Shown here: piece by piece, positions 5,605-18,221 of the stretch
How the letters are laid out: every line of letters begins with the position of its first letter
Numbering within the stretch: position 1 is the first letter of the stretch
Assembly (NCBI GenBank): GCA_022768185.1
Contig: JALEMS010000015.1
Location: 1-25,429 of the forward strand
Length of the DNA stretch: 25,429 bases
Source: Clostridiales bacterium
GTDB taxonomy: Bacteria; Bacillota; Clostridia; Oscillospirales; Oscillospiraceae
Reading direction: 5' to 3'
The notes under the pieces: model-generated
What the model saw: the letters and a program-made list of their open reading frames with translations, nothing else
What the model was told of the DNA's origin: nothing
Database searches by the model: none
Program-made: the position numbers and the translations under genes

Positions 5605-5900
5605 TCAGCTCTCTGGCTGCTGCCTGCCGCCTGCAAGGAAACGGCCCGGCAGCATAATAAGGCCCAGCACAATCACCAGAGCCAGCTGCACAAATACCGG
5701 AACCAGAGCAGCGCAAGCGACGCGCAGGCCCGCTACAAGCAGGGCGAGCGCGGCGAAAACAAAAAAAACAGACGCCGCAGTACGGGCGTCCGGAAGGGTG
5801 GCAGCGGTGCAGGGGGCAGTGCTGCCGGCGCAGGTGAAAGAAGCCTCTGCCATTTTGTTGACAGACGCCGTACCGGTTGCGTGCTTCGTATACATCGTCA
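5605..5900 (-). CDS. Hypothetical small membrane protein, about 98 aa, with two predicted TM helices in the C-terminal half
   Basis: AAAGGAG lies 9 nt upstream of ATG 5900 (MTMYTKH…). It has its own consensus promoter and its own terminator. The hydrophobic stretches are FFVFAALALLVAGL and ALVPVFVQLALVIVLGLIML. Confidence 0.5.
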
Positions 5901-5947
5901 TGGCGAGCAGCTCCTTTCTGCAGTACCCCTGCAAAAATATTGTCACA

Positions 5948-5976
5948 AGTATACCCTGTTGCTTTTTAAATTGCAA
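5948..5976 (-). promoter_or_regulatory. Sigma-A-type promoter for the small membrane-protein gene
   Basis: The minus strand reads TTGCAA, a 17-nt spacer, then TATACT. It sits in an AT-rich island within a GC-rich region. The -35 lies inside a short inverted repeat, tgttgc…gcaaca. Confidence 0.55.
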
Positions 5977-6101
5977 CACCAAATTGCCGGATTTTTTACA
6001 TAAATATTGCTTTCGGCCGTGCTTTCGCTTAGATTATCTGCACAATCGCGTCATTTTTCCGCATACGGCACAGCTTTCTCCGACCGGGCAGGCCCGGAAG
6101 C

Positions 6102-6136
6102 GCGAGTCTGCCGCACGGAGAAGCCGTGCGGCAGAC
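6102..6136. repeat. Perfect 15-bp inverted repeat (stem-loop) downstream of the lectin-domain gene
   Basis: gagtctgccgcacgg / agaag / ccgtgcggcagactc. There is no adjacent U-tract on either strand. Confidence 0.6.
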
Positions 6137-6170
6137 TCAATGGCAGACCGTGGGGGGCTATGCTTCCCCG

Positions 6171-7806
6171 TCAGCGGTCCTCATATTCGCAGATGAAGCC
6201 GATCTTTCCGCTGTATGCCGTGGGATAATCGGCCACCGGGTCGTTTCGGCTGTCGTTATAGATCCAGCTGCCCTTGCGCTTCCAGAGCATCAGGTAATCC
6301 TCGGCCGTACCGTCGGAGTCGTAGGCCGAGGGCTGGCCCTTGCCCCAGCGGAAGAAGCTGATCTGCTCACCGGTCACCCAGCTCCAGTTGCCCATCAGGT
6401 CGCGATAGGCGCCGGCCCAGACGAGGCCGATGCCCTTCGAATCGGCCAGCTTCGTCACCTCGGCCAGCTCCGTCTCGTCCGAGATGGTCACCAGGTGCCC
6501 GCCCATCTGCTCGCACAGCGCCTTGGCCATGCTCCAGGAGCAGTCCCGGATCACCAGCTCATAGCGCGGGTTTTCCGTCTGCGTCGGCTGGGGAGGATCG
6601 GGCTGGGGGTCGTCCGGCTTTGACGGCGTGGTCGGCTGCGTCGGCGTGGTCGGCTGCGTCGGCTGCGTCGGCTGCGTCGGCGTGGTCACGTTCGTGGGAT
6701 TGTTTTCCGCATCCGGCCCGGACGGATCGTCCGGCTCAGTCGGATCGCCGGGGCTTTCCGGGTCGTCCGGCTCAGCGGGATCGCCGGGGTTTTCCGGGTC
6801 GTCCGGCTCGGCGGGATCGTCCGGCTCGGACGGCTGGTTTTCGTCCGGTGTGTTGGGAACGGAGACGTCAATGGGCGTACCCGGCTGGTTTTCGCCCGGC
6901 TGATTTGCCGGCTTATGGAACGAGCGCAGCAGCAGCGCCGCCAATATGATGGCCACGCACGCAACGCCCGCAACGATGTACGGCATCACACGGCGGCGCT
7001 GGGCCGACGCGTCCTGCGCAGCAGGCGGCACGTCGTGCGGCCGTGCGGCAGACGGCTTCTCTGCTTCCGGCGCAGGAGCCGGAACCGGCTCGGCAGCCTC
7101 TGCGGGCGCATCGTGCTCCTGCGGGGCAGCCGGCATTTCCTCCGGCGCTGCCGTCCCGGCAGTCTCCGTCTCGGGCGCAGCCGGCTCCGCTTCCGGAGTC
7201 TCCGGCTCGTCCGGCAGCTCCATCACAAGGCCGGCGGGCACAGGCACGGGCGTTTCACACGCTTCGGCGCACGCATTGAGCGCATGCAGCAGCTCTGCCG
7301 GCGTTTTCCATCGGCCATCCGGCGCAAAGGAAAGCGCCTTCATCACCGTCTGGCGCAGCGCGGGGCTGCCGTGCTCCGGCTCGGGCAGCGGCTGACCGCT
7401 CATACGCAGCTTGAAGGCCTTCGCCCGCTCGGCGGCGGACATCGTCTCCGACGCGGCAAAGGGCATTCGTCCGTTGTTGAGCGCGGCATACAGCATCAGG
7501 CCGACAGCGTACAGATCCGCCTGCACCGTACCCGAGCCGCTCCAGAACAGCTCCGGGGCCAGATACTCCAGTTCCTCGGACGACCACTTGCGGTCTGCCG
7601 CGACAGAGCCGCCCCCGCCGAGACCGACCTCGCCCTCCGGCGTAAAGCTGACGTTTCCGGCCTGCACGCCGCCGACGCATCTGCCGGCCCGGTCGTGCAG
7701 CGCAAGACACAGGCCGCGGCCAAGCGCAATGATCTCGCCCTCCGTCAGCCCGGCCAGGCGACCGGTCAGCAGGTATTCCTGATTCAGGTGAAATTGTTCA
7801 GACATA
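6171..7806 (-). CDS. Membrane protein with three parts. The N-terminus is a cytoplasmic degenerate protein-kinase C-lobe (pseudokinase-like). A single TM helix follows. The extracellular part has Pro/Thr/Asp-rich tandem-repeat linkers and a C-terminal C-type lectin-like domain.
   Basis: Kinase subdomain VIII/IX signature: LAPELF…DLYAVGLMLYAALNNGRMPF. The Gly-rich loop, VAIK, catalytic Asp and DFG are all absent. TM helix: VMPYIVAGVACVAIILAALLL. C-type lectin-like pattern: C…WAGAYRD…WSWVTGE…EDYLMLW…WIYND…FICEYE. AAGGAG lies 7 nt upstream of ATG 7806. The in-frame upstream ATG at 7847 has no RBS. Confidence 0.75.
6625..6687. repeat. 9-nt tandem repeat, 7 copies (ggctgcgtc / ggcgtggtc), inside the CDS. 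It encodes a (T)TPTQP linker.
   Basis: Direct inspection of the sequence. Confidence 0.8.
6726..6835. repeat. 36-nt tandem repeat, 3 copies, inside the CDS. It encodes PAEPDDPENPGD-type units.
   Basis: Direct inspection. The unit gtccggctcagyggatcgccggggytttccgggtc is repeated. Confidence 0.75.
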
Positions 7807-8022
7807 TTCGACTCCTTGCGAACATCCGCACAGTGCTTTTCTTCCATCGGCAGTTGCCTATTCTGAAATTATAGCGCAAGCCGCACAAAAAGGAAAGAGT
7901 GCATCACAAAATATTTACAACTGGTTTTTTCCCGGAGATTTGGGGAGACAAGCGCGGAAATCTGTGCTATCATGACGGCATAAGCCCGCCGCGCCGTGCG
8001 CCGCGGCACGACGGAGGAAGCC

Positions 8023-8646
8023 ATGGTCACGCTGTATTACACCGATATCCGCGCGCTTGCGCCCGTGTACGACGCGGCGCTGGCACGCATCACGCCCGGA
8101 CGAAAGCGGCGCATCGCCGCGCTGCGCCGGCCGGACGACCGGCTGCGCAGCCTCGGCGTGGGGCTGCTGCTGCGCGCGGTGCTGGACGTGCGGGATGACG
8201 CGCAGCTCGTCTACGGCGCGCACGGCAAGCCGCTGCTGCCCGGCGGTCCGCAGCTGAGTCTGGCACACGGCGGGGATCTGGCCCTGCTGGCCGTCAGTCC
8301 GCTGCCGGTGGGCACGGACGTGCAGCGCATCGTGCCGGTGCGTCCGGCGCTGGCCGCATACGTCTGTACGCCGGAGGAGCTGCGCTGGCTGCAGGCCGGG
8401 GACGAACCGGAGCGCCGCTTTGCCGTGCTGTGGACGCGCAAGGAAAGCGTGATGAAAGCCACCGGGCTGGGTCTGGCGCTGGGGCCGCGGCGGCTGTGCG
8501 TGCTGCCGGAGGCCGGACCGTGCCCTGCCGGGGGCGCGCTGTGGCAGGCCGAGCACCGCGAGCTGGACGGGCACATGCTGGCCGCCGCCGGGCCGGAGCC
8601 GCCGGCGCTGACGCTGCGCCGGCTCGATGCGGCGCAACTGCTGTAG
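8023..8646 (+). CDS. 4'-phosphopantetheinyl transferase, Sfp/EntD type
   Basis: The motifs GAHGKP, SLAHGGD, PVGTDVQRI and WTRKESVMKATGLG match PPTase motifs. GGAGGA lies 5 nt upstream of ATG 8023. No carrier-protein, NRPS or PKS gene is in the window. Confidence 0.75.
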   Translation: MVTLYYTDIRALAPVYDAALARITPGRKRRIAALRRPDDRLRSLGVGLLLRAVLDVRDDAQLVYGAHGKPLLPGGPQLSLAHGGDLALLAVSPLPVGTDVQRIVPVRPALAAYVCTPEELRWLQAGDEPERRFAVLWTRKESVMKATGLGLALGPRRLCVLPEAGPCPAGGALWQAEHRELDGHMLAAAGPEPPALTLRRLDAAQLL

Positions 8647-8717
8647 AGTCAGACGGAAATCTTTTCCGTTTTGTTTCACAAGCTCCGCCATTTTTACCGT
8701 TATGGGAGGATTTACCA

Positions 8718-10036
8718 TGGATCAGACCGCACTGCAGGACGCACAGGCCCTGCTTTCCTTCATTGCGCACAGCCCCACCGCCTATCAGGCCGTGGATACG
8801 ATGGCCGCTCTGCTCGATCAGGCGGGCTTTGTCCGCCTGCAGGAGCACGAGCGCTGGACGCTGCGGCCCGGACAGTGCTGCTATCTCATCCGAAACGGCT
8901 CGGCCCTCGTGGCCTTCCGCATTCCCGCGGCAGGGGCCGATCGCTTCATGGCCGCCGCCGTGCATACCGACTCCCCCGCCTTCAAGCTGAAGGCCGACGG
9001 CGAGCTGGACGCCTTCGGAAAATACGTGCGTCTGAACACCGAGCGCTACGGAGGGATGATCCTCTCGACGTGGCTTGACCGGCCGCTGTCCGTGGCGGGC
9101 CGCGTCATCGTGCAGGACGGCGCGCGCTTTGTCCCGCGCTCCGTTACGGTCGACCGTGATCTCGTCCTCATCCCCAACACCTGCATCCATTTCAACCGCG
9201 AGCTCAACGACGGATACCGCTACAATCCTGCGTCCGACCTGCTGCCGCTGTACGCCATGACCGGCGGGCAGCCGCTGCGCAGCGTCCTGGCCGAGGCCGC
9301 CGGCTGCGCGCCGGAGCAGCTGGCCGGAGGGGATCTTTTCCTTTATCATCGCACCCCCGGCACGGTCTGGGGCGCAGAGCGCGAGTTCTTCTCCGCACCG
9401 CGCATCGACAATCTGATGTGCGCCTACGGCGCGCTGCGCGGCCTGCTCGAGGCAGGACCGGACGGAACGGCCGTGCAGGTGCTCGCGGCGCTGGACAACG
9501 AGGAGACCGGCAGCCAGTCCCGTCAGGGAGCCGGGTGTCTGCTGGTTCGCGACGTGCTCGAACGCATCGCCGGGGCGCTGGGGCACGATCTCATGCAAAT
9601 GCTGGCCGGCTCCATGCTGCTGTCGGCTGACAACGCCCACGCAAGACATCCCAACCGCCCCGAGCTGAGCGACAGCGGTACAAACGCGCCGCACATGAAT
9701 GCCGGCGTCGTCATCAAGCACAATGCCGCACAGCACTACACGACCGACGCCGTCTCCGCCGCGCTTTTTTCCGAGATCTGCCGCAGTGCCGGCGTGCCCG
9801 TGCAGCACTTCTCCAACCGCAGCGACCTGGCCGGCGGCTCCACGCTCGGCGGCATCCTCAACCGCAGCGTGCCGCTGTGCTCGGTGGACGTCGGCATGGC
9901 GCAGCTTGCCATGCACTCAAGCTATGAAACAGCCGGCTGCGCAGACGTGACGTACATCGTCCGGGCCTGCCGCGCCTTCTTCCGCAGCGCGCTCACCTGC
10001 CGGGACGGCGGCTTCGAGCTGCATACCGGGCGCTGA
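8718..10036 (+). CDS. M18-family aminopeptidase (aspartyl aminopeptidase-like zinc metallopeptidase)
   Basis: N-terminus MDQTALQDAQALLSFIAHSPTAYQAV, plus HTDSP, NEE(T)GS and HSSYE metal-ligand regions. GGGAGG lies upstream of ATG 8718. Confidence 0.8.
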
Positions 10037-11736: not shown

Positions 11737-11765
11737 CCGTCTGTTTCCGGGCTGCCGCAGGCTGT

Positions 11766-11808
11766 GGGAGCGTGACGCTCCCACAGCCTGCTTCTTTTTA
11801 AATACCGC
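11766..11808 (+). terminator. Rho-independent terminator after degV
   Basis: 16-bp stem gcaggctgtgggagcg/cgctcccacagcctgc, loop tga, then TTCTTTTT. Confidence 0.8.
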
Positions 11809-11876: not shown

Positions 11877-13121
11877 ATGGCCTACAGTGAGTTGATTAAG
11901 GATTACGAGCGCATCCGAGACTATATGCGCTCGTTTTTCGTCTACGGCTTCCGCAGCCGCGAGGAACACGACGCCAAAAGCGCCCGCAGCTACGACAACG
12001 AACGCCGCCGCATCGAAAGCTGGCTCGGCGACTGCCTCTGCTCCCGGCAGGACGCCGGGGGAAAGCGCGTCTTTCTCTGCGTGGACAGCCGCGCCGTATC
12101 CCGCAACCCGCTTTACCGGTCGTTCCGCACCAAAAGCTTTACCGACCGGGACATCACGCTGCACTTTTACCTGCTCGATCTGCTCTCCGGCGGCGAGGCG
12201 CTCACCGTCGGCGAGATCGTCGGGCGCATCGAAACGGACTATCTCTCCCAGTTTCCCGCAGATTATCCCCTCGACGAATCCACCGTGCGCAAGAAGCTCA
12301 GGGAATATGAAGCGCTGGGTCTGCTGCGCAGTGAAAGGACCGGACGCACGGTACGCTACCGGCTGGCGCAGTCCGCCGTCCGGCAGGAAACGTGGCTGGA
12401 CGCCGCCGCCTTTTTCTCGGAGGAAGCTCCGGTCGGCGTGATCGGCTCGTTTTTCCTTGACCGGTTTGCGCATACGCCGGATTATTTCGGCTTCAAGCAC
12501 CATTATCTGCTGCATGCGCTTGACAGCGAGCCGGCCTGCGCGCTGCTGACGGCCATGCGCGAACGGCGCACGGTCGAGCTGCAGGTGCAGAGCCTGCGCA
12601 CCGGCGCGCGGATGCAGCGCACCGTCTTTCCCCTGCGCCTGTACGTCAGCACGCAAACCGGGCGGCAATATCTGCTCGGCTGGCACTACCGCAGCCGGCG
12701 CATGCTCTTTTTCCGGCTCGACGCCGTCCGTCGTGTGACGCCCGGCGCACCGGAGCCGGACGCCGCCCGCTTTCAGGACGCCTGCGCGCGCTTTCAGCAG
12801 CATCTGTGGGGCGTCTCCGCCGGCTCGGAGCGCGGCACGGCGCACATCGAGCTGACCGTCCGCGCCGGCGAGGATGAGGCGCACATTCCCCGCCGTCTGC
12901 AGCGCGAGCGCCGCTGCGGCACGGTCGAGCGGATCGGCCCGGACGTCTGGCGCTTCACAGCGGATGTGTACGACGCCATGGAAATGCTGCCCTGGCTGCG
13001 CACGTTCCTGGGGCGCATCGTGTCGCTCGAATGCAGCGACACGCGCGTCACCGACGCCTTTTATGCCGATCTGGCCGAAATGGCCGCGCTGTACGGAGGG
13101 AACGACGATGCTGTTCAGTGA
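11877..13121 (+). CDS. WYL-domain transcriptional regulator, paralog 1. It has a winged HTH, a WYL domain and a C-terminal WCX-like region.
   Basis: wHTH: LTVGEIVGRI…STVRKKLREYEALGLL. WYL core: RQYLLGWHYRSRRMLFFRLDAVRRV. AGGAGG lies ahead of ATG 11877. An extended -10, TGGTATGAT, is at 11829-11837. Confidence 0.75.
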   Translation: MAYSELIKDYERIRDYMRSFFVYGFRSREEHDAKSARSYDNERRRIESWLGDCLCSRQDAGGKRVFLCVDSRAVSRNPLYRSFRTKSFTDRDITLHFYLLDLLSGGEALTVGEIVGRIETDYLSQFPADYPLDESTVRKKLREYEALGLLRSERTGRTVRYRLAQSAVRQETWLDAAAFFSEEAPVGVIGSFFLDRFAHTPDYFGFKHHYLLHALDSEPACALLTAMRERRTVELQVQSLRTGARMQRTVFPLRLYVSTQTGRQYLLGWHYRSRRMLFFRLDAVRRVTPGAPEPDAARFQDACARFQQHLWGVSAGSERGTAHIELTVRAGEDEAHIPRRLQRERRCGTVERIGPDVWRFTADVYDAMEMLPWLRTFLGRIVSLECSDTRVTDAFYADLAEMAALYGGNDDAVQ

Positions 13122-14043
13122 GCTTTACGGCTGCTATTTCCACACGGTCTCGGCCGTGCTGGCCGAGGCGGTGCAGCACACGCTGACCGGCGAGCGGCTG
13201 CGCGCGCTCGTGCAGCGGCACGCCTTCGCCGAAAGCGGGCTGACCATCCCCGCCGCGCTGCAGACGCGCTGGCCGCTGCTGAAGCCGGATCTCTCCACGC
13301 CGCTGCGCCGCGCGCCCTCCCTGCCGCTGACGCTGCTGGAGCAGCGCTGGCTGAAAACGCTGCTGCAGGATCCCCGCATTGCGCTGTTTGCGCCCGATCC
13401 GACGGGGCTGGAGGACGTCGAGCCGCTGTTCGACCTGTCCGATGTGGTGTATTTCGACCGGTATCTCGACGGCGACCCCTACACGGATCCGGCCTACATC
13501 GCCGTTTTCCGCCGGCTGCTGTGCGCCGTTCAGACGCACCGGCGGGTACAGCTGCTGCGCACCGTGCGCTCCGGCGCCGTACGCAGCGCCGAATGCCTGC
13601 CGCTGCGGCTGGAGTATTCGGCCAAGGACGACAAATTCCGCCTGCTGACCGCCGGAAACCGCAGCTGCCGCACCGTCAATCTGGCCAACATCCGCAGCTG
13701 CCGCCTGCTCGAGCCGGTCGATCCGTCCGGCCTCCGCGAGCCGGCGCGCCGCCTGCGCACGCTGACCTTCCGGCTGACGGACGAGCGCAACGCCCTGGAG
13801 CGGGCGCTGCTGCATTTTTCCCATTTTGAAAAGCAGACCGTCCGGCTGGACGGGCGGCACTACGAGGTGACGCTGCGCTATGAAAAGGAGGACGAGACGG
13901 AGCTGCTGATCCGTGTGCTCTCGTTCGGTCCGATGCTGCGCGTCACCGCGCCGGAGGACTTCGTTGCCCTGGTACGTACGCGCCTGCAGCGCCAGCTGCA
14001 GCTGACCGCAGTCCCCTCCCCGCCACGTGAGCCGCCGGAATAA
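13108..14043 (+). CDS. WYL-domain protein, paralog 2. It has a WYL domain and a C-terminal WCX-like region, and is translationally coupled to paralog 1.
   Basis: WYL core: DKFRLLTAGNRSCRTVNLANIRSCRLL. Its N-terminus is related to paralog 1 (FSELYGCYFHTV versus YSELIKDYERI). GGAGGG lies ahead of ATG 13108, which overlaps the WYL-1 stop by 14 nt. The longer track ORF from 12874 is out-of-frame antisense-style noise. Confidence 0.7.
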   Translation: MLFSELYGCYFHTVSAVLAEAVQHTLTGERLRALVQRHAFAESGLTIPAALQTRWPLLKPDLSTPLRRAPSLPLTLLEQRWLKTLLQDPRIALFAPDPTGLEDVEPLFDLSDVVYFDRYLDGDPYTDPAYIAVFRRLLCAVQTHRRVQLLRTVRSGAVRSAECLPLRLEYSAKDDKFRLLTAGNRSCRTVNLANIRSCRLLEPVDPSGLREPARRLRTLTFRLTDERNALERALLHFSHFEKQTVRLDGRHYEVTLRYEKEDETELLIRVLSFGPMLRVTAPEDFVALVRTRLQRQLQLTAVPSPPREPPE

Positions 14044-14064
14044 AGGAACGTCCATGTGCCCATC

Positions 14065-14098
14065 GCTGCGGATTCAACGTGAGTTCGCAGCTTTTTTT
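14065..14098 (+). terminator. Rho-independent terminator after the WYL pair
   Basis: Stem gctgcg/cgcagc with a 15-nt loop, followed by TTTTTTT. Confidence 0.6.
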
Positions 14099-14127
14099 CC
14101 GTGATTTCCCTGCCGCTCTCTGATAGG

Positions 14128-14312
14128 ATGGGCCCGTAAGCTCCCCTGAGCGTGTGGCTGAACGGCTCACCGCGGTGCACCGGGACATTCCGACGTGTAT
14201 GCCGGCGGGCTTACGGAAACGATCGCCTGTCAAGCGATGGGGTCAAACGCCCCTCCAACGTGGGTTCGAATCCCACCCGCGCCGCCCGCGCGGCCAGTGG
14301 TTTGGTTTTGGA
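14128..14312 (+). ncRNA. Candidate tRNA-like ncRNA or leader element. It has an anticodon-like stem-loop (atcgc/CTGTCAA/gcgat, anticodon position GUC). A long variable hairpin follows (gggg/tcaaacg/cccc). A consensus T-arm follows (GTGGG-TTCGAAT-CCCAC). The 3' strand of the T-arm overlaps an intrinsic terminator. There is no acceptor-stem partner.
   Basis: Extended -10 TGATAGGAT at 14120-14128. T-arm at 14260-14276. Terminator stem ccac-ccgcgc/gcgcgg-gtgg at 14273-14300, followed by TTTGGTTTTGG. A canonical tRNA cannot be folded because no sequence complementary to ccgcgcc is present upstream. Confidence 0.35.
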
Positions 14313-14552
14313 AGCTCCGCTTCCGCACAAGAAAAGCGCCCCTCCCCGCGCCGCGCGGCCAGCGTCCCCGGCTTTTGCTGCGCCGTACGGCAATGCCGCC
14401 GGGCCTTGTCTGCCGCGGATACCGTGCAGGCCCGCCGCCGGCCAGAGGCCCCGCCTTCCGCCGCCGAGCCGGCCGTGCTCAAGCGTCCAGCCGCCCGGCG
14501 CGCATCAGGGGAGCCGTGCATGACATTTTTTACCTTTCCGGAGGACAGAGAT

Positions 14553-15659
14553 ATGAAGCCCGTTACCATCCATGAAAATCAGCGCGGCCTGCTCTTCAAG
14601 GACGGCCGCTTCCTTCGCCCGCTCGCCCCGGGCCGCCACCGACTGCCCGGCCGGCAGCTGGCCGAGGTACTGCCGCTGGAGGACGCGGTGCGCTCCGACC
14701 GCTGCACGCTGGACGCCCTGCTGGAAAACGCGGAGCTGGCCGCACAGGTCACCGTCGTGGAGGTCGGCGACCGGCAGCTGGCGCTCTGCTTCCTGGACGG
14801 CAAGTTCTCCTGCGCGCTGTGCAAGGGGAAATACGCCTTCTGGAACACCCGGCAGACGCGCACCTGGCGCCTGGTGGACATCTCCAGCCCCACCGTCGCC
14901 GACGACGTGCCGACCTACCTGTTCCGGCTGCTGCCGCCGAGCCTCTACCTCCGCGCGGAGGTAGCCGAGCACCAGCGGGCGCGCCTGTGCTACGACCGGC
15001 GGTTCGTCCGCCTGCTTGAGCCGGGCGTGTACTACTTCTGGAAAAACGACGTGAAGGTGGAGCTGACGTACGTCGACACCCGTCTGACGCAGGAGACCAT
15101 CACCGGCCAGGAGCTGCTGACGCTGGATAAGGTGAGCGTACGTCTGAGCTTCGTGTGCAGCTACCGCATTGCAGACTGCCTGCGCGTGCTCACCGAGATC
15201 GACGATTGGGCCGAGCAGCTGCACGTGGCCGCGCAGCTGGCCATGCGTGAGTTCGTCGGCCGCCGCCGGCTCGACGAGCTGCTGGAGAGCCGCGAGGAGA
15301 TCTCCGCCTTCGTGCTGGCCCGGCTGCGGGAGAAAGCCCCCGCGCTGTTTCTTGAGATCGTCGACGGCGGCGTGCGCGACATCATCCTGCCCGGCGAGAT
15401 CCGCGAGATCATGAACACCGTTCTGATTGCCGAGAAGCGCGCGCAGGCCTCCGTCATCACCCGCCGCGAGGAGGTGGCCTCCACACGCTCGCTGCTCAAC
15501 ACCGCAAAGCTGATGGACGAAAACCGGACGCTCCGTCGGCTCAAGGAGCTGGAGTATATCGAGCGCATCTGCGGCAGCGTCGGCAGCATCAGCCTCAGCA
15601 GCTCCGGCGACCTGCTCGGACAGCTGACGGCTCTGCTGGGCGGCTCGTCCGCCTCGTGA
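14553..15659 (+). CDS. SPFH/band-7 (stomatin/prohibitin/flotillin/HflKC-like) domain protein, with no N-terminal TM segment, so apparently cytoplasmic
   Basis: The SPFH core, VSVRLSFVCSYRI…EQLHVAAQLAMREFVG…EISAFVLARLREKA, plus a coiled-coil C-terminal region. GGAGGA lies ahead of ATG 14553. The long track ORF from 14154 is an upstream extension with no start support. Confidence 0.7.
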   Translation: MKPVTIHENQRGLLFKDGRFLRPLAPGRHRLPGRQLAEVLPLEDAVRSDRCTLDALLENAELAAQVTVVEVGDRQLALCFLDGKFSCALCKGKYAFWNTRQTRTWRLVDISSPTVADDVPTYLFRLLPPSLYLRAEVAEHQRARLCYDRRFVRLLEPGVYYFWKNDVKVELTYVDTRLTQETITGQELLTLDKVSVRLSFVCSYRIADCLRVLTEIDDWAEQLHVAAQLAMREFVGRRRLDELLESREEISAFVLARLREKAPALFLEIVDGGVRDIILPGEIREIMNTVLIAEKRAQASVITRREEVASTRSLLNTAKLMDENRTLRRLKELEYIERICGSVGSISLSSSGDLLGQLTALLGGSSAS

Positions 15660-15696
15660 CGCACATCGCCCAAGCCCGAAGGGAGGAACCGAACCC

Positions 15697-16899
15697 ATGA
15701 TCGAAGTGACCGGGGCATACAACACGGCCAGATGCTTCTGCCGGACGCTGGAGGACTCGGCGCGCCGGCAGATCCAGGCCGTCTGCGACCAGCCGGCCTT
15801 TGCCGGCAGCAAGATCCGCATCATGCCGGACGTCCACGCCGGCATGGGCTGCACCATCGGCACCACCATGACCGTCGCCGACAAGCTCGTGCCCGGCATG
15901 GTGGGCGTGGACATCGGCTGCGGCATGGAAACCGTGCGTCTGGAGGAAAAGACGCTCGACCTTGACCGGCTCGACCGCGTCATCCGCGCATGCATTCCCG
16001 CCGGCCGGGAGATCCGCAGCACGCCGCACCCCCTCTGCGAACAGATCGACCTGACCGCGCTGCGCTGCGCCGACCGGGTGAAGCTTGACCGCGCCCGCCG
16101 CAGCATCGGCACGCTCGGCGGCGGCAATCATTTTATTGAGATCGACCGCGGCGACGACGGCAGCCTCTATCTCGTCGTTCACTCCGGCAGCCGCCACCTC
16201 GGCAAGGAGGCCGCGACGCTCTATCAGGACGAGGGGCGGCGCGCCATGTGGGGCGGCGCGCGGCATCAGATCGAGGAGACCATCGCCGCGCTGAAGGCCG
16301 AAGGCCGCGTTCAGGAGATCCAGCCGACGGTCTCCCGCCTCCGGCGGGAGCACAAGCTGGACATTCCCCGCGACCTGGCCTATGTGGAGGGCCGGCTGTT
16401 CGACGATTACCTGCACGACATGAAGCTCATCCAGCGCTTTGCCGCACTCAACCGCAAGGCCATAACGGACGTCCTCCTCACACAGCTCGGCCTCACCCCC
16501 GCCGAGGAATTCACCACCGTCCACAACTACATCGACACCGACGCGATGATCCTGCGCAAGGGCAGCGTGTCGGCCCGCGCCGGGGAAAAGCTGCTCATCC
16601 CCATCAACATGCGCGACGGCAGCCTCATCTGCATCGGCCGCGGCAACGAGGACTGGAACTGCTCGGCCCCGCACGGCGCCGGCCGCCTGATGAGCCGGGC
16701 GGAAGCCTTCCGCAGCCTGACGATGGACGAATTCCGCGCCGAGATGGCAGGAATTTTCTCCACGTGCGTCTCACAGGAGACGCTTGACGAGTCGCCCATG
16801 GCCTACAAGCGCATGGACGAGATCGTCGGCGAGCTTGGTCCCACCGCGGAGATCGTTGCGCGCATTCTGCCCATCTACAATTTCAAGGCGGCGGATTAA
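15697..16899 (+). CDS. rtcB: RNA-splicing ligase RtcB (3'-phosphate / 2',3'-cyclic phosphate RNA ligase)
   Basis: Metal-ligand and GTP-binding motifs: MPDVHAGMGCTIG, GGGNHFIEI and SAPHGAGR. GGGAGG lies 9 nt upstream of ATG 15697. Confidence 0.9.
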   Translation: MIEVTGAYNTARCFCRTLEDSARRQIQAVCDQPAFAGSKIRIMPDVHAGMGCTIGTTMTVADKLVPGMVGVDIGCGMETVRLEEKTLDLDRLDRVIRACIPAGREIRSTPHPLCEQIDLTALRCADRVKLDRARRSIGTLGGGNHFIEIDRGDDGSLYLVVHSGSRHLGKEAATLYQDEGRRAMWGGARHQIEETIAALKAEGRVQEIQPTVSRLRREHKLDIPRDLAYVEGRLFDDYLHDMKLIQRFAALNRKAITDVLLTQLGLTPAEEFTTVHNYIDTDAMILRKGSVSARAGEKLLIPINMRDGSLICIGRGNEDWNCSAPHGAGRLMSRAEAFRSLTMDEFRAEMAGIFSTCVSQETLDESPMAYKRMDEIVGELGPTAEIVARILPIYNFKAAD

Positions 16900-16940
16900 A
16901 AGGAAAAACCGCCGCCTTGCCGAAACCGGAGGAAAACGTC

Positions 16941-18221
16941 ATGCTCAACCTGCCCCCACAGGCCGTCGAGGCACTGCGCGCGCTGGAGGCCGCCGGCTTT
17001 GAGGCCTTTGTCGTCGGCGGCGCGATGCGCGACGGCGTCCGGGGCGTGCAGCCGAAGGACTGGGATCTTGCCACGAATGCCACGCCCGAGCAGGCGGCCG
17101 CCGTCTTCACAGGCCGGCACATCATCGAAACCGGCCTCAGGCACGGCACCGTCACCGTCGTGCTCGATCATATGCCGCTGGAGATCACGACCTATCGCGG
17201 CGACGCGCCGACCCTGCAGGCCGACCTGGCCCGCCGGGACTTCACCTTCAACGCCATGGCCTATCATCCCCGCACCGGCCTGCTCGACCCCATGGGAGGC
17301 CGGGCCGATCTGGCGCGGGGGCTTGTCCGCTGCGTCGGCGAGGCCGACCGCCGCTTTGCGGAGGACGGGCTGCGTATTCTGCGCGCGCTGCGCTTTGCCG
17401 CCGTGCTGGGCCTGCGCGTGGAGGACAAAACGGCCGCCGCCATGCGCCGGAACCTGCCGCTGCTGCCGCAGGCCGCGCCCGAACGCATCCGCGCCGAGCT
17501 GACCGGACTGCTGTGCGGCCGGGACGCGGGCCGGGTGCTGGCGGAGAACGCAGACATTGCAGCCGCCGTGCTGCCGGAGCTGGCCCCGCTTTTCGGCTTT
17601 GCGCAGCACAACGCGCACCACGACCGGGACGTCTGGCAGCACACGCTCGCCGTCGTCGACGCAGCCGCGCCCGAGCCGGTGCTGCGATGGGCCGCGCTGC
17701 TGCACGACCTCGGAAAGCCCGCCTGCTTCTCGCTTGGCCCGGACGGCGCCGGCCACTTTTACGGGCATGCCGAACTCAGCGCGAAGCTGGCCGGAGCCAT
17801 CCTCACGCGTCTGCATTCCGACACCGCCGGACGCGCGCAGATTGTCGCGCTCGTCCGCTGGCACGATGTGCCCATCGTGCCGGAGCGGCGGGCCATGCGC
17901 CGCCTGCTGCGCCGTCTGGGCGAGGACACGGTGCGCCGTCTTCTGGCGCTGCGCATCGCTGACACGCGCGGGCAGGCCCCCGCCTGTCAGGGCCGGCTCG
18001 AAACGCTCCGGCAGGCCGGGGCCGTCGTCGACACGCTGGTGGCCGAGGCCGCCTGCTTTTCGCGGAAGGATCTGGCCGTGACCGGGCGCGATCTGCTCCC
18101 GCTCGGCCTGACCGGGCATGAGATCGGCGCGGCGCTTGAGCGCTGCCTCACCGCCGTGGTGGAAGAGGCCGTGCCGAACGAACGCGCGGCGCTGCTGGAC
18201 TATGTGCGCCGCGGCGGCTGA
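16941..18221 (+). CDS. cca: CCA-adding enzyme / tRNA nucleotidyltransferase, with PolyA-polymerase-type head and HD domain
   Basis: GGAMRD, RDFTFNAMA and EDGLRILRALRFAA motifs, plus the HD motif LHDLGKP. GGAGGA lies 7 nt upstream of ATG 16941. The track start at 16917 is TTG without an RBS. There is no terminator between rtcB and cca. Confidence 0.85.
   Translation: MLNLPPQAVEALRALEAAGFEAFVVGGAMRDGVRGVQPKDWDLATNATPEQAAAVFTGRHIIETGLRHGTVTVVLDHMPLEITTYRGDAPTLQADLARRDFTFNAMAYHPRTGLLDPMGGRADLARGLVRCVGEADRRFAEDGLRILRALRFAAVLGLRVEDKTAAAMRRNLPLLPQAAPERIRAELTGLLCGRDAGRVLAENADIAAAVLPELAPLFGFAQHNAHHDRDVWQHTLAVVDAAAPEPVLRWAALLHDLGKPACFSLGPDGAGHFYGHAELSAKLAGAILTRLHSDTAGRAQIVALVRWHDVPIVPERRAMRRLLRRLGEDTVRRLLALRIADTRGQAPACQGRLETLRQAGAVVDTLVAEAACFSRKDLAVTGRDLLPLGLTGHEIGAALERCLTAVVEEAVPNERAALLDYVRRGG

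Follow-up and report, generated by a model that had tools for sequence, protein, structure and literature searches.

We analysed a 25,429-nt stretch of genomic DNA from a Clostridiales bacterium of the family Oscillospiraceae (assembly GCA_022768185.1, contig JALEMS010000015.1), which is referred to here as the window and has a G+C content of 63.5%. The subject of this study is a block of genes and elements on the forward strand of the window, in the order of two regulators with WYL domains (WYL-A and WYL-B), an intrinsic terminator, a leader RNA, an SPFH/Band-7 protein, the RNA ligase RtcB, and a tRNA nucleotidyltransferase of the CCA-adding type (Table 1). A DegV-like gene and a strong terminator (11757-11791) precede WYL-A. 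The block had been picked out in an earlier reading of the nucleotide sequence (hereafter, the original prediction), which took it for a tRNA-repair operon under the control of the WYL pair. The feature is real and strongly conserved, and it is located where that prediction had placed it. The two overlapping WYL genes and the terminator after them are present, as is a leader with a tRNA-like element in front of the SPFH gene, and no terminator-like site with a good stem was found between 14100 and 18221, in agreement with the uninterrupted run of the SPFH, rtcB, and cca genes that had been described. With respect to the domain assignments, Pfam searches confirmed WYL (in WYL-A), Band_7, RtcB, and PolyA_pol/HD, and the WCX region of WYL-B scored 23.5 bits, slightly below the cut-off of 23.9 bits. 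The leader spans 14044-14552 (509 nt), within which positions 14136-14517 (about 390 nt) form a structured RNA composed of two domains.

Table 1. Genes and elements of the block and their positions in the window.
Feature	Position	Strand	Remarks
WYL-A regulator, 414 amino acids	11877-13121	+	weak winged helix-turn-helix (HTH) at about 116-170, WYL at 223-288, C-terminal WCX-like region
WYL-B, 311 amino acids, divergent WYL + WCX	13108-14043	+	first 14 nt shared with the end of WYL-A
Intrinsic terminator of the WYL genes	14065-14098	+	12-bp stem 14065-14091, then T7
20-nt box TTCGCAGCTTTTTTTCCGTG, candidate operator for the WYL pair, upstream promoter element, or both	14084-14103	+	
Candidate extended -10 TGATAGGAT (other loci TGGTAAAAT)	14121-14129	+	first conserved RNA base 6-7 nt downstream
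RNA Domain I	14136-14324	+	sub-threshold match to Rfam tRNA, partial match to YrlA, covariation, model R1, single-sequence fold
RNA Domain II, about 137 nt	14381-14517	+	three nested helices with conserved unpaired motifs
Soluble SPFH/Band-7 ("slipin") protein, 368 amino acids	14553-15659	+	Band_7, 2.4e-24
RtcB RNA ligase, 400 amino acids	15697-16899	+	Pfam RtcB, 201 bits, 4.7e-59
Class II tRNA nucleotidyltransferase (CCA-adding type) with HD domain	16917-18221	+	start TTG 16917 or ATG 16941

In many Clostridia, WYL-A, WYL-B, the leader RNA, SPFH, and RtcB are conserved together as one module. More than 7,000 relatives of the SPFH protein, annotated as "slipin family protein", are in the database, and 80 genomic loci were retrieved through this protein; they belong to Oscillospiraceae, Lachnospiraceae, Erysipelotrichaceae, Christensenellaceae, Acutalibacteraceae, Paenibacillus, and Fretibacterium. 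Upstream genes were counted in the 61 loci with at least 2.7 kb of upstream sequence: 37 carry co-oriented WYL-A and WYL-B genes, 6 carry a divergent pair, 5 have a single distant WYL gene, and 13 have none. Downstream genes were counted in the 69 loci with at least 1.5 kb of downstream sequence, of which 39 have RtcB directly after SPFH (50-72% identity), 5 have it at a distance upstream, and 25 lack it. Clustering of all open reading frames (ORFs) of the loci revealed no further widely conserved neighbour. The gene-neighbourhood analysis suggested with the original prediction thus gave a divided answer: the block of WYL pair, leader RNA, SPFH, and rtcB is kept across many Clostridia, whereas cca is not, as discussed below. 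The conserved order extends to a sister species (L101), where DegV-WYL-WYL-Band7-RtcB-CCA appear in the same arrangement with an SPFH protein about 90% identical and a nucleotidyltransferase 78% identical to those of the window, although the downstream flank differs.

Domain I of the RNA was analysed module by module; a MAFFT alignment of the whole domain was defeated by variable insertions. In the long-range helix P0, the 5' strand GUAAGC (14136-14141) pairs with GCUUAC (14209-14214), and the corresponding strands elsewhere read GCAAG/CUUGC, ACAAG/CUUGU, GUAAAA/UUUUAC, CAAAG/CUUUG, and GCAGG/CCUGC. The 3' strand of P0 had been misaligned by MAFFT, and the helix was examined with a custom permutation script, which gave a mean paired run of 5.11 for the strands with their own partners against 4.48±0.11 with permuted partners (maximum 4.83 in 200 permutations). 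Two hairpins follow the 5' strand, P1 (about 14153-14171) and H1 (14174-14203; GGUGCAC...GUGUAUGCC in the window). H1 is highly conserved (GGUGCRC...GYGU-AU-GCC), two of its pairs covary in 9-18 of 34 sequences, and the covariation of H1 and P1 supports the structure of Domain I. After H1 comes a variable region, which in the window contains an anticodon-like arm (14222-14238) with the canonical 7-nt loop CUGUCAA (14227-14233) and a small hairpin (14239-14253). Next to these stands a perfect T-arm (14260-14276; GUGGG-UUCGAAU-CCCAC), directly abutted by a closed, acceptor-like hairpin, H2 (14277-14293), and then by a D-arm-like hairpin (14294-14305; CCA-GUGGUU-UGG, with the GG of the D-loop) and a final hairpin (14310-14324). 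Since the D-arm precedes a local hairpin here, the permutation point of the tRNA-like module is apparently the variable loop and not the anticodon loop. In Paenibacillus, the hairpin after the D-arm is a full anticodon-like arm. A single-sequence fold of the window RNA yields most of the proposed helices.

The tRNA-like character of Domain I was assessed with general and with custom models. ARAGORN found no tRNA genes in the window. No Rfam family, including T-box, riboswitches, ROOL, GOLLD, OLE, and raiA, matched anywhere in the window at its gathering score, and no relevant cis-regulatory or large ornate RNA appeared in the leader under a relaxed threshold (E ≤ 10). Under the relaxed threshold, the Rfam tRNA model matched 14205-14281 with 24.1 bits (gathering score 29), and the YrlA model matched partially at 14260-14293, that is, the T-arm and H2, with 17.5 bits (gathering score 69). 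Because ARAGORN reported no gene and the tRNA score lies below its gathering score, we regard the element as tRNA-like and not as a tRNA gene. A canonical tRNA gene was rejected on the same grounds and by the covariation, which supports a closed H2 instead of an open acceptor strand; the closed-acceptor reading is in conflict with the canonical cloverleaf imposed by the tRNA model. We then described the T-arm, H2, the D-arm, and the final hairpin with a covariance model, R1. It finds positions 14260-14320 of the window with 43.6 bits (E about 2e-10) and, at E<1e-4, a total of 45 sites from 43 loci and the window (44 sources), all of them upstream of SPFH and on the SPFH strand. In the alignment of the 45 matches, which was fitted to the model, 93.5% of the cells pair against 71.9% in shuffles, 18 of the 20 pairs show compensatory changes, and the score for covariation, 0.517, compares with 0.169 for shuffles and 0.05-0.09 for slid controls. 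A chance origin of the tRNA-like element is thus excluded by its conservation and covariation, which extend to dozens of loci.

Two side observations concern the tRNA-like parts of other loci. Tandem copies (2-4) of a T-arm, a short closed hairpin, and a class-I or class-II D-arm (TAGCTCAGAGGTAGAGC or GCCAAGTGGTTAAGGC) were seen in L063 (6330-6630), L059, L066, L076, L077, and L080, and look like chains of mimics of the tRNA "elbow". In about a quarter of the loci, 7-nt CUGUNAA loops sit on differing helices (L007:5308, L017:6552, L020:4219, L030:6683, L045:3673, L028:909, L059:6615, and others).

Domain II has no tRNA resemblance and matches no Rfam family. Its invariant unpaired motifs are GCCUUGYC, GGAUACCG (14417-14424), CCAGAAG, UUCCGC, CUCAAG, and GCCGC, and its 3' end lies about 35 nt before the SPFH start codon and about 23 nt before the SPFH ribosome-binding site (RBS). 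RNAalifold was applied to an unfitted MAFFT alignment of 36 sequences and predicted 29 pairs in Domain II, 26 of which show compensatory changes. The proportion of pairing cells is 87.1% against 59.0% in shuffles, and the covariation score of 0.736 compares with 0.217 in shuffles (0 of 500 as high) and 0.15-0.21 in slid controls. A second covariance model, R2, recovers the window with 57.7 bits (E 4e-14) and matches 71 of the 80 SPFH loci, always on the + strand upstream of SPFH (e.g., L007:5483-5620); the association of RNA and SPFH was assessed within these loci, which had been retrieved through SPFH. The original prediction of a cis tRNA-like element therefore stands as far as the tRNA-like module is concerned, but this module is one part of a structured two-domain RNA of about 390 nt.

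Among motifs that look single-stranded, the two most conserved are GUAU(G)CC on the 3' side of H1 (14198-14203) and GGAUACC in Domain II (14417-14423). They are complementary, save one bulged base; both are almost invariant, and so a long-range or alternative pairing between them is beyond the reach of covariation. A hairpin followed by T5-T7 lies between Domains I and II in L007 (5420-5450), L008, L020, and L017; at about 14330-14380, the window holds no more than a weak, GC-rich hairpin with UUUU. By terminating or attenuating transcription internally, the inter-domain hairpin could set Domain I free as a small RNA of its own.

The 20-nt box TTCGCAGCTTTTTTTCCGTG in front of the RNA is composed of the terminator stem's 3' half, the T-tract, and CCGTG; the same hairpin and T-run occur at other loci. 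By a strict pattern, the box is near-identical in 43 of 81 loci, with a single copy per locus except L065 (two copies). It lies about 35-50 nt upstream of the RNA, and among the 37 loci with a measurable distance to H1, all but 5 have it 59-77 nt 5' of that hairpin. It is present in 34 of the 37 loci with a co-oriented WYL pair and in none of the six loci with a divergent pair. Because it is near-invariant in genomes whose SPFH proteins share just 55-60% identity, the box is expected to be recognized in a sequence-specific manner, and judged from its position and distribution it is likely the operator of the WYL proteins encoded immediately upstream. In upstream regions aligned by eye, an extended -10-like sequence, TGnTAnAAT, lies about 16 nt 3' of the box, and P0 begins 6-7 nt further on; the candidate -10 in the window was not picked up by a consensus scan. 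Local control by the WYL pair, as had been proposed, fits the near-invariant box between the WYL genes and the putative RNA promoter.

WYL-A matches Pfam WYL with 2.4e-8 and a PaaX-like HTH with 0.004, and both proteins match a CRISPR-associated WYL model of PADLOC (WYL-A, 1.3e-14 over residues 222-385; WYL-B, 7.1e-9 over residues 130-295). WYL-B aligns with the WYL domain of WYL-A (E=0.006), and WCX was detected in 9 of 16 WYL-B orthologues. Thus, WYL-A combines a weak HTH with WYL and WCX regions, and WYL-B combines WYL-like and WCX regions; in a PafBC-type pair, each partner has HTH, WYL, and WCX. Among the anti-phage defence models of PADLOC, only generic CRISPR-associated WYL models matched, and SPFH, RtcB, and the CCA-type enzyme had no match.

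The SPFH protein starts at ATG 14553, preceded by the RBS GGAGGA (14540-14545), and not at the ORF start 14154. It was described as cytoplasmic in the original prediction, and this is correct because the protein has no hydrophobic segment (maximum 19-residue hydropathy 1.09); an N-terminal membrane anchor is likewise absent. The chain is divided into beta repeats (1-41, 66-109, and 132-175), the SPFH domain (about 180-280), and a long C-terminal helix (281-342). In AlphaFold models of the full length and of the N-terminal 178 residues, which have predicted local distance difference test (pLDDT) scores of 77.8 and 94.3, respectively, three beta repeats of five strands each, the SPFH domain, and a 60-residue helix are seen. 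In Foldseek searches with the models, the SPFH-plus-helix part resembled stomatin, HflK/C, and prohibitin (E 1e-11 to 1e-7), and also erlin and flotillin; the modelled SPFH-plus-long-helix architecture is that of proteins forming rings or cages. The repeat is more numerous in longer homologues (496-638 amino acids; P0003, P0019, P0022, and L053:5999-7501), and in the window (14553-15086) its sequence is similar in pattern to the SPFH domain's own first strands. Homology of the SPFH protein with the major vault protein (MVP) is weak at best; a vault-like analogy is possible from the models. No phage homologues of the SPFH protein were found.

RtcB joins 3'-phosphate or 2',3'-cyclic phosphate ends to 5'-OH ends. 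The motifs MPDVHAG, DIGCG, GGGNHF, HSGSRHLG, and HGAGR of the encoded enzyme align with solved structures (P. horikoshii RtcB), and the metal-binding and His motifs are all present. The CCA-type enzyme has an ordinary Pfam domain set (PolyA_pol, PolyA_pol_RNAbd, HD, and tRNA_NucTran2_2). Its best NCBIfam CCA equivalog score is 204 bits, under the cut-off of 290, and the motifs GGxxRD, RRDFTxNA, and EDxxR were identified by eye; its specificity may be for CCA, CC/A, or poly(A). The positions around SPFH are occupied differently in other loci. A nucleotidyltransferase of the RlaP family (PF10127, 1.4e-86) occurs in five of them (L031:3830-4594, L033:9555-10325, L051:9296-10054, L072:8140-8931, and L073:8085-8978), and in L076 a T4 Rnl1-like ligase (8282-9526) follows SPFH instead of RtcB. 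The Rnl1-like ligase and the five RlaP genes indicate that the ligase and nucleotidyltransferase slots are interchangeable. An additional conserved ORF of about 210 residues with the motif ...MISYWNEYYRYD.YRYK.YIGKKLY.ECFGY.KTGQK, which has no Pfam match, was seen between the RNA and SPFH in L018 (800-1468), L019 (2802-3449), L023 (6237-6983), L029 (6366-6983), and L040 (6351-6989), and after SPFH in L012 (8261-8812).

The system is carried by cultured bacteria, including Oscillibacter valericigenes Sjm18-20, Dielma fastidiosa JC13, Subdoligranulum variabile, Paenibacillus species, and, in a sigma54-type version, some E. coli strains. In O. valericigenes Sjm18-20 it is found at about 473.3-473.8 kb of AP012044.1 (locus L003). 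In E. coli STEC639 (L107, CP061233.1), an island of slipin and nucleotidyltransferase genes (5684-7922) has a DUF3811 gene on one side and lysC on the other. Ahead of these genes stand the sigma54-like sequence TGGCAC-N5-TCGCA and a T-arm (5811-5825) with an abutting 8-bp hairpin; R1 matches weakly (12.2 bits) and R2 does not match. These sequence features suggest that the same pairing of RNA and SPFH may exist under RtcR-type control in Proteobacteria. A scan of the viral collection with the RNA pattern gave 0 matches. In a metagenome collection that seems poor in gut Clostridia, 20 matches (L081-L100) to the pattern GCCTTGYC-N8-9-GGATACCG-N24-42-TTCCGC were dismissed as chance occurrences, none having SPFH, RtcB, WYL, or an R2 match.

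We consider it probable, though by no means certain, that the locus is a Firmicutes version of an SPFH/Band-7-centred RtcB RNA-repair system with a tRNA-like noncoding RNA, controlled by WYL proteins. The anatomy, conservation, RNA structure, and enzyme families described above are observations, from which the following functional steps are reasoned. The WYL proteins would be made from their own short operon, ending at the terminator, and would bind the 20-nt box just 5' of the promoter at about 14121-14129. From this promoter, a single transcript would carry the structured RNA, SPFH, rtcB, and, in this lineage, cca. RtcR responds to damaged tRNA through its CARF domain; in an analogous way, a signal of RNA damage may be sensed by the WYL domains, which would then turn the promoter on. 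The RNA would display a tRNA-shaped module, consisting of the T-arm on the closed acceptor-like hairpin, the D-arm with its GG, and in the window the anticodon-like arm, in addition to the second domain. It would most likely be bound by the soluble SPFH protein, which resembles the ring- or cage-forming stomatin and HflK/C. Together, the RNA and SPFH could serve as a scaffold or substrate mimic that recruits RtcB or guides it to broken tRNA-like substrates, and the nucleotidyltransferase slot (CCA-adding type here, RlaP elsewhere) might restore nibbled 3' ends.

Several points weigh against this interpretation. The tightest link is that between the RNA and SPFH and not that between the RNA and RtcB, because 25 of the 69 loci have no RtcB beside SPFH. 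The fitting of the R1 alignment to its model favours the modelled structure, and the fold energy of the leader RNA of the window is no better than that of shuffled sequences (z = -0.38); the latter value is as expected from the G+C content of the RNA (68%), and the structural support comes from the comparative data. The PafBC-like heterodimer that had been proposed for the WYL pair is doubtful: domain scans detected no HTH or other DNA-binding domain in WYL-B, the pair is just marginally similar in sequence to the PafBC and PafC structures that have been solved (E 0.03-0.13; WYL-A to PafC, E=0.028), and a profile search of the PDB with WYL-B gave no match. The correspondence with the system predicted in 2016, considered below, is drawn from a secondary description (Wang et al. 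2018). Finally, a purely cis-regulatory role is equally compatible with the data, because the RNA is the leader of an mRNA.

In its strongest form, the cis-regulatory explanation holds that the leader of about 390 nt acts mainly as a riboswitch-like sensor or processing-dependent switch for transcription read-through or translation of SPFH-rtcB, and not as a cofactor of a protein; Domain II would be the sensing and expression platform, and Domain I could be a built-in tRNA mimic. The RNA invariably lies directly 5' of SPFH on the same strand without a strong terminator, Domain II contains many invariant unpaired nucleotides as do ligand- or RNA-binding pockets, and the hairpin with a T5-7 run between the domains at several loci is a possible attenuator. 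However, no known riboswitch or T-box family matches, and the RNA is retained where the downstream ligase differs or is missing. Seven loci keep it although an extra ORF places it about 650 nt from SPFH, which is hard to square with control close to the RBS. The related YrlA, moreover, acts as a stable ribonucleoprotein component. We judge a mainly cis-acting leader to be rather unlikely. The tRNA-like module might alternatively be a decayed tRNA gene or the remnant of an integration site without function, for which the sub-threshold tRNA score and the tRNAs that ARAGORN calls at this place in L011 and L020 could be cited. This reading is effectively refuted by the covariation data and must be considered extremely improbable: more than 50 loci of different families keep the element in an unchanged position, and H2, the D-arm, and the helices that flank them show compensatory changes; a larger RNA, which also covaries, encloses it; the closed acceptor hairpin is at odds with a canonical cloverleaf; and no integrase was noticed nearby, the flanking ORFs being unannotated. 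A role for the RNA as a decoy or tripwire for anticodon nucleases, whose cleavage would titrate the toxin or signal to the repair operon and be resealed, like that of tRNAs, by RtcB, also seems improbable to us. The ends that colicin E5 produces by cutting between Q/G34 and U35, 2',3'-cyclic phosphate and 5'-OH, are substrates of RtcB. In line with such a role, 7-nt loops with an anticodon signature carrying GUC, GUU, GUA, or GUG were counted 21 times in 72 leaders and 5 times in the reverse-complement control, loops of this GUN (Asp/Asn/His/Tyr) family, which is the one cut by toxins of the colicin E5 type, sit on differing helices in different loci, and those of Paenibacillus carry UUU, UCU, UUC, or UCC. 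Yet the loop is found in just about a quarter of the loci, minimal versions of the RNA do without it, and the tRNA-like YrlA of Salmonella is reported in the literature not to be cleaved by an SOS-induced anticodon nuclease. The UGU of the loop could equally be a recognition feature of tRNA-guanine transglycosylase or a relic of tRNA ancestry.

The place of cca in the probable repair system is a separate matter. In the original prediction it was an integral part of the operon, but it was found in only 3 of 82 loci (the window, the sister species L101, and L031), being absent from 79 of the 81 others (80 genomic loci and L101). Homologues with 55-62% identity are extremely abundant, and the two whose surroundings were checked (P0128 and P0165, 59-62% identity) lie in unrelated housekeeping neighbourhoods, beside SpoU methylase, DprA, and TopA or beside glycogen genes. 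The gene might thus be the housekeeping CCA gene of this lineage, standing 3' of rtcB by chance, and may even be the sole cca gene of the organism; its ordinary domain set would agree with this, though its score is under the equivalog cut-off. We take such a coincidence to be a real possibility without favouring it. Against it speak the gap of 17-41 nt to rtcB, which holds no terminator, the maintenance of the order in the sister species with a different downstream flank, the 46% identical cca of L031 inside the operon between RlaP and rtcB, and the recurrence of nucleotidyltransferases as an optional slot in these systems. Since it occurs in three loci only and its relatives have housekeeping contexts, we presume that cca is a lineage-specific occupant of the optional nucleotidyltransferase slot.

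A more far-reaching version of the repair system can be offered as a tentative proposal, one that we would sooner doubt than accept. The leader RNA at 14136-14517 would represent an uncurated class of large RNAs and form, with a ring- or cage-like SPFH assembly and RtcB, a particle of the Ro/Y-RNA or vault kind, in which the CUGUNAA loops would possibly be a nuclease bait. The WYL pair and the 20-nt operator would then be a switch, the Firmicutes counterpart of control by RtcR and its CARF domain.

These observations address the question of what RtcB repairs in bacteria and why its gene is so often located beside those of a tRNA-like RNA and a scaffold that binds RNA. Of the two parallel systems, the one with Ro60/YrlA has been studied, and the one with SPFH is a nine-year-old prediction. 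The locus in the window and its roughly 70 relatives from abundant gut and rumen Clostridia provide a concrete anatomy that can be tested: an RNA of about 390 nt described by two covariance models, a probable operator, a regulator made of two proteins, and a soluble SPFH protein with unusual repeats. If a particle of the RNA and SPFH does exist, it would be a new bacterial ribonucleoprotein and would give a soluble, RNA-linked role to a protein family that is normally treated as membrane scaffolds.

The individual parts of the module have different counterparts among known systems. PafBC is the mycobacterial WYL-domain heterodimer that activates the DNA-damage response. Like PafBC, the WYL proteins are encoded by two adjacent, overlapping genes, contain WYL and WCX regions, show weak sequence similarity to PafC and PafBC, and are accompanied by a conserved upstream box near a putative promoter without a good -35 element. 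Unlike PafBC, their presumed target is an RNA-repair operon, WYL-B has no detectable HTH, and the heterodimer is putative. With the membrane-anchored SPFH scaffolds stomatin and HflK/C, the SPFH protein shares the SPFH domain and the long helix, but three beta repeats take the place of their N-terminal membrane anchor or hairpin. As supporting context from other bacteria, the SPFH protein PaFlo8 of P. aeruginosa sits inside the rtc locus, and derepression of a slipin gene and of rtcB has been described for Anabaena, in a trcR mutant as well as during translational stress. In the accessible literature, nothing was found on a large RNA upstream of slipin genes, on the 20-nt box, or on Domain II. 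Of the published link between WYL and CARF regulators and rtcB on which the original prediction drew, the CARF-RtcR part was verified, and a WYL-rtcB link was not found in the accessible papers. As far as we can tell, the size of the RNA and its second domain, together with the WYL pair and its box, exceed what these papers describe.

The closest parallels are two systems in which RtcB is combined with a scaffold and an RNA. SPFH/Band-7 modules were reportedly described, in the abstract of the 2016 work of Burroughs and Aravind, as potential scaffolding cofactors with a novel tRNA-like molecule. The Ro60 (Rsr)-YrlA/Y RNA-RtcB operon of Salmonella and others likewise places RtcB beside a scaffold protein and a noncoding RNA with a tRNA-like module, and YrlA is a circularly permuted tRNA with a closed acceptor stem (Wang et al. 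2018). The order of T stem-loop, closed acceptor stem-loop, and D stem-loop is the same in YrlA and in Domain I. In contrast to YrlA, the RNA described here has a local hairpin after the D-arm, no Ro-binding stem, and an extra Domain II, and it is an mRNA leader; in contrast to the Ro60 operon, the scaffold is an SPFH protein and a WYL pair replaces sigma54/RtcR-CARF. No Ro60/TROVE gene was present among the five module genes or their conserved neighbours, the other ORFs of the window lying outside the scan. The second parallel is nearer still. In certain bacteria, RtcB adjoins a Band-7 protein and a predicted noncoding RNA termed b7a-tRNA, for "band 7-associated tRNA" (Burroughs and Aravind 2016, as described in Wang et al. 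2018, bioRxiv 10.1101/312249). According to the latter paper, b7a-tRNA is an unvalidated prediction and was proposed to be functionally redundant with YrlA. The original prediction had regarded the gene combination as undescribed; because this account already joins Band-7, RtcB, and b7a-tRNA, the core of our finding is of a known, purely computational kind. As far as the definition conveyed by Wang et al. goes, the locus in the window agrees with it in having the SPFH gene beside RtcB and a tRNA-like noncoding RNA beside the SPFH gene, with optional slots for a nucleotidyltransferase and an alternative ligase. Compared with that secondary description, the locus presents in addition a two-domain leader of about 390 nt, the WYL pair, the 20-nt box, and a CCA-type nucleotidyltransferase.

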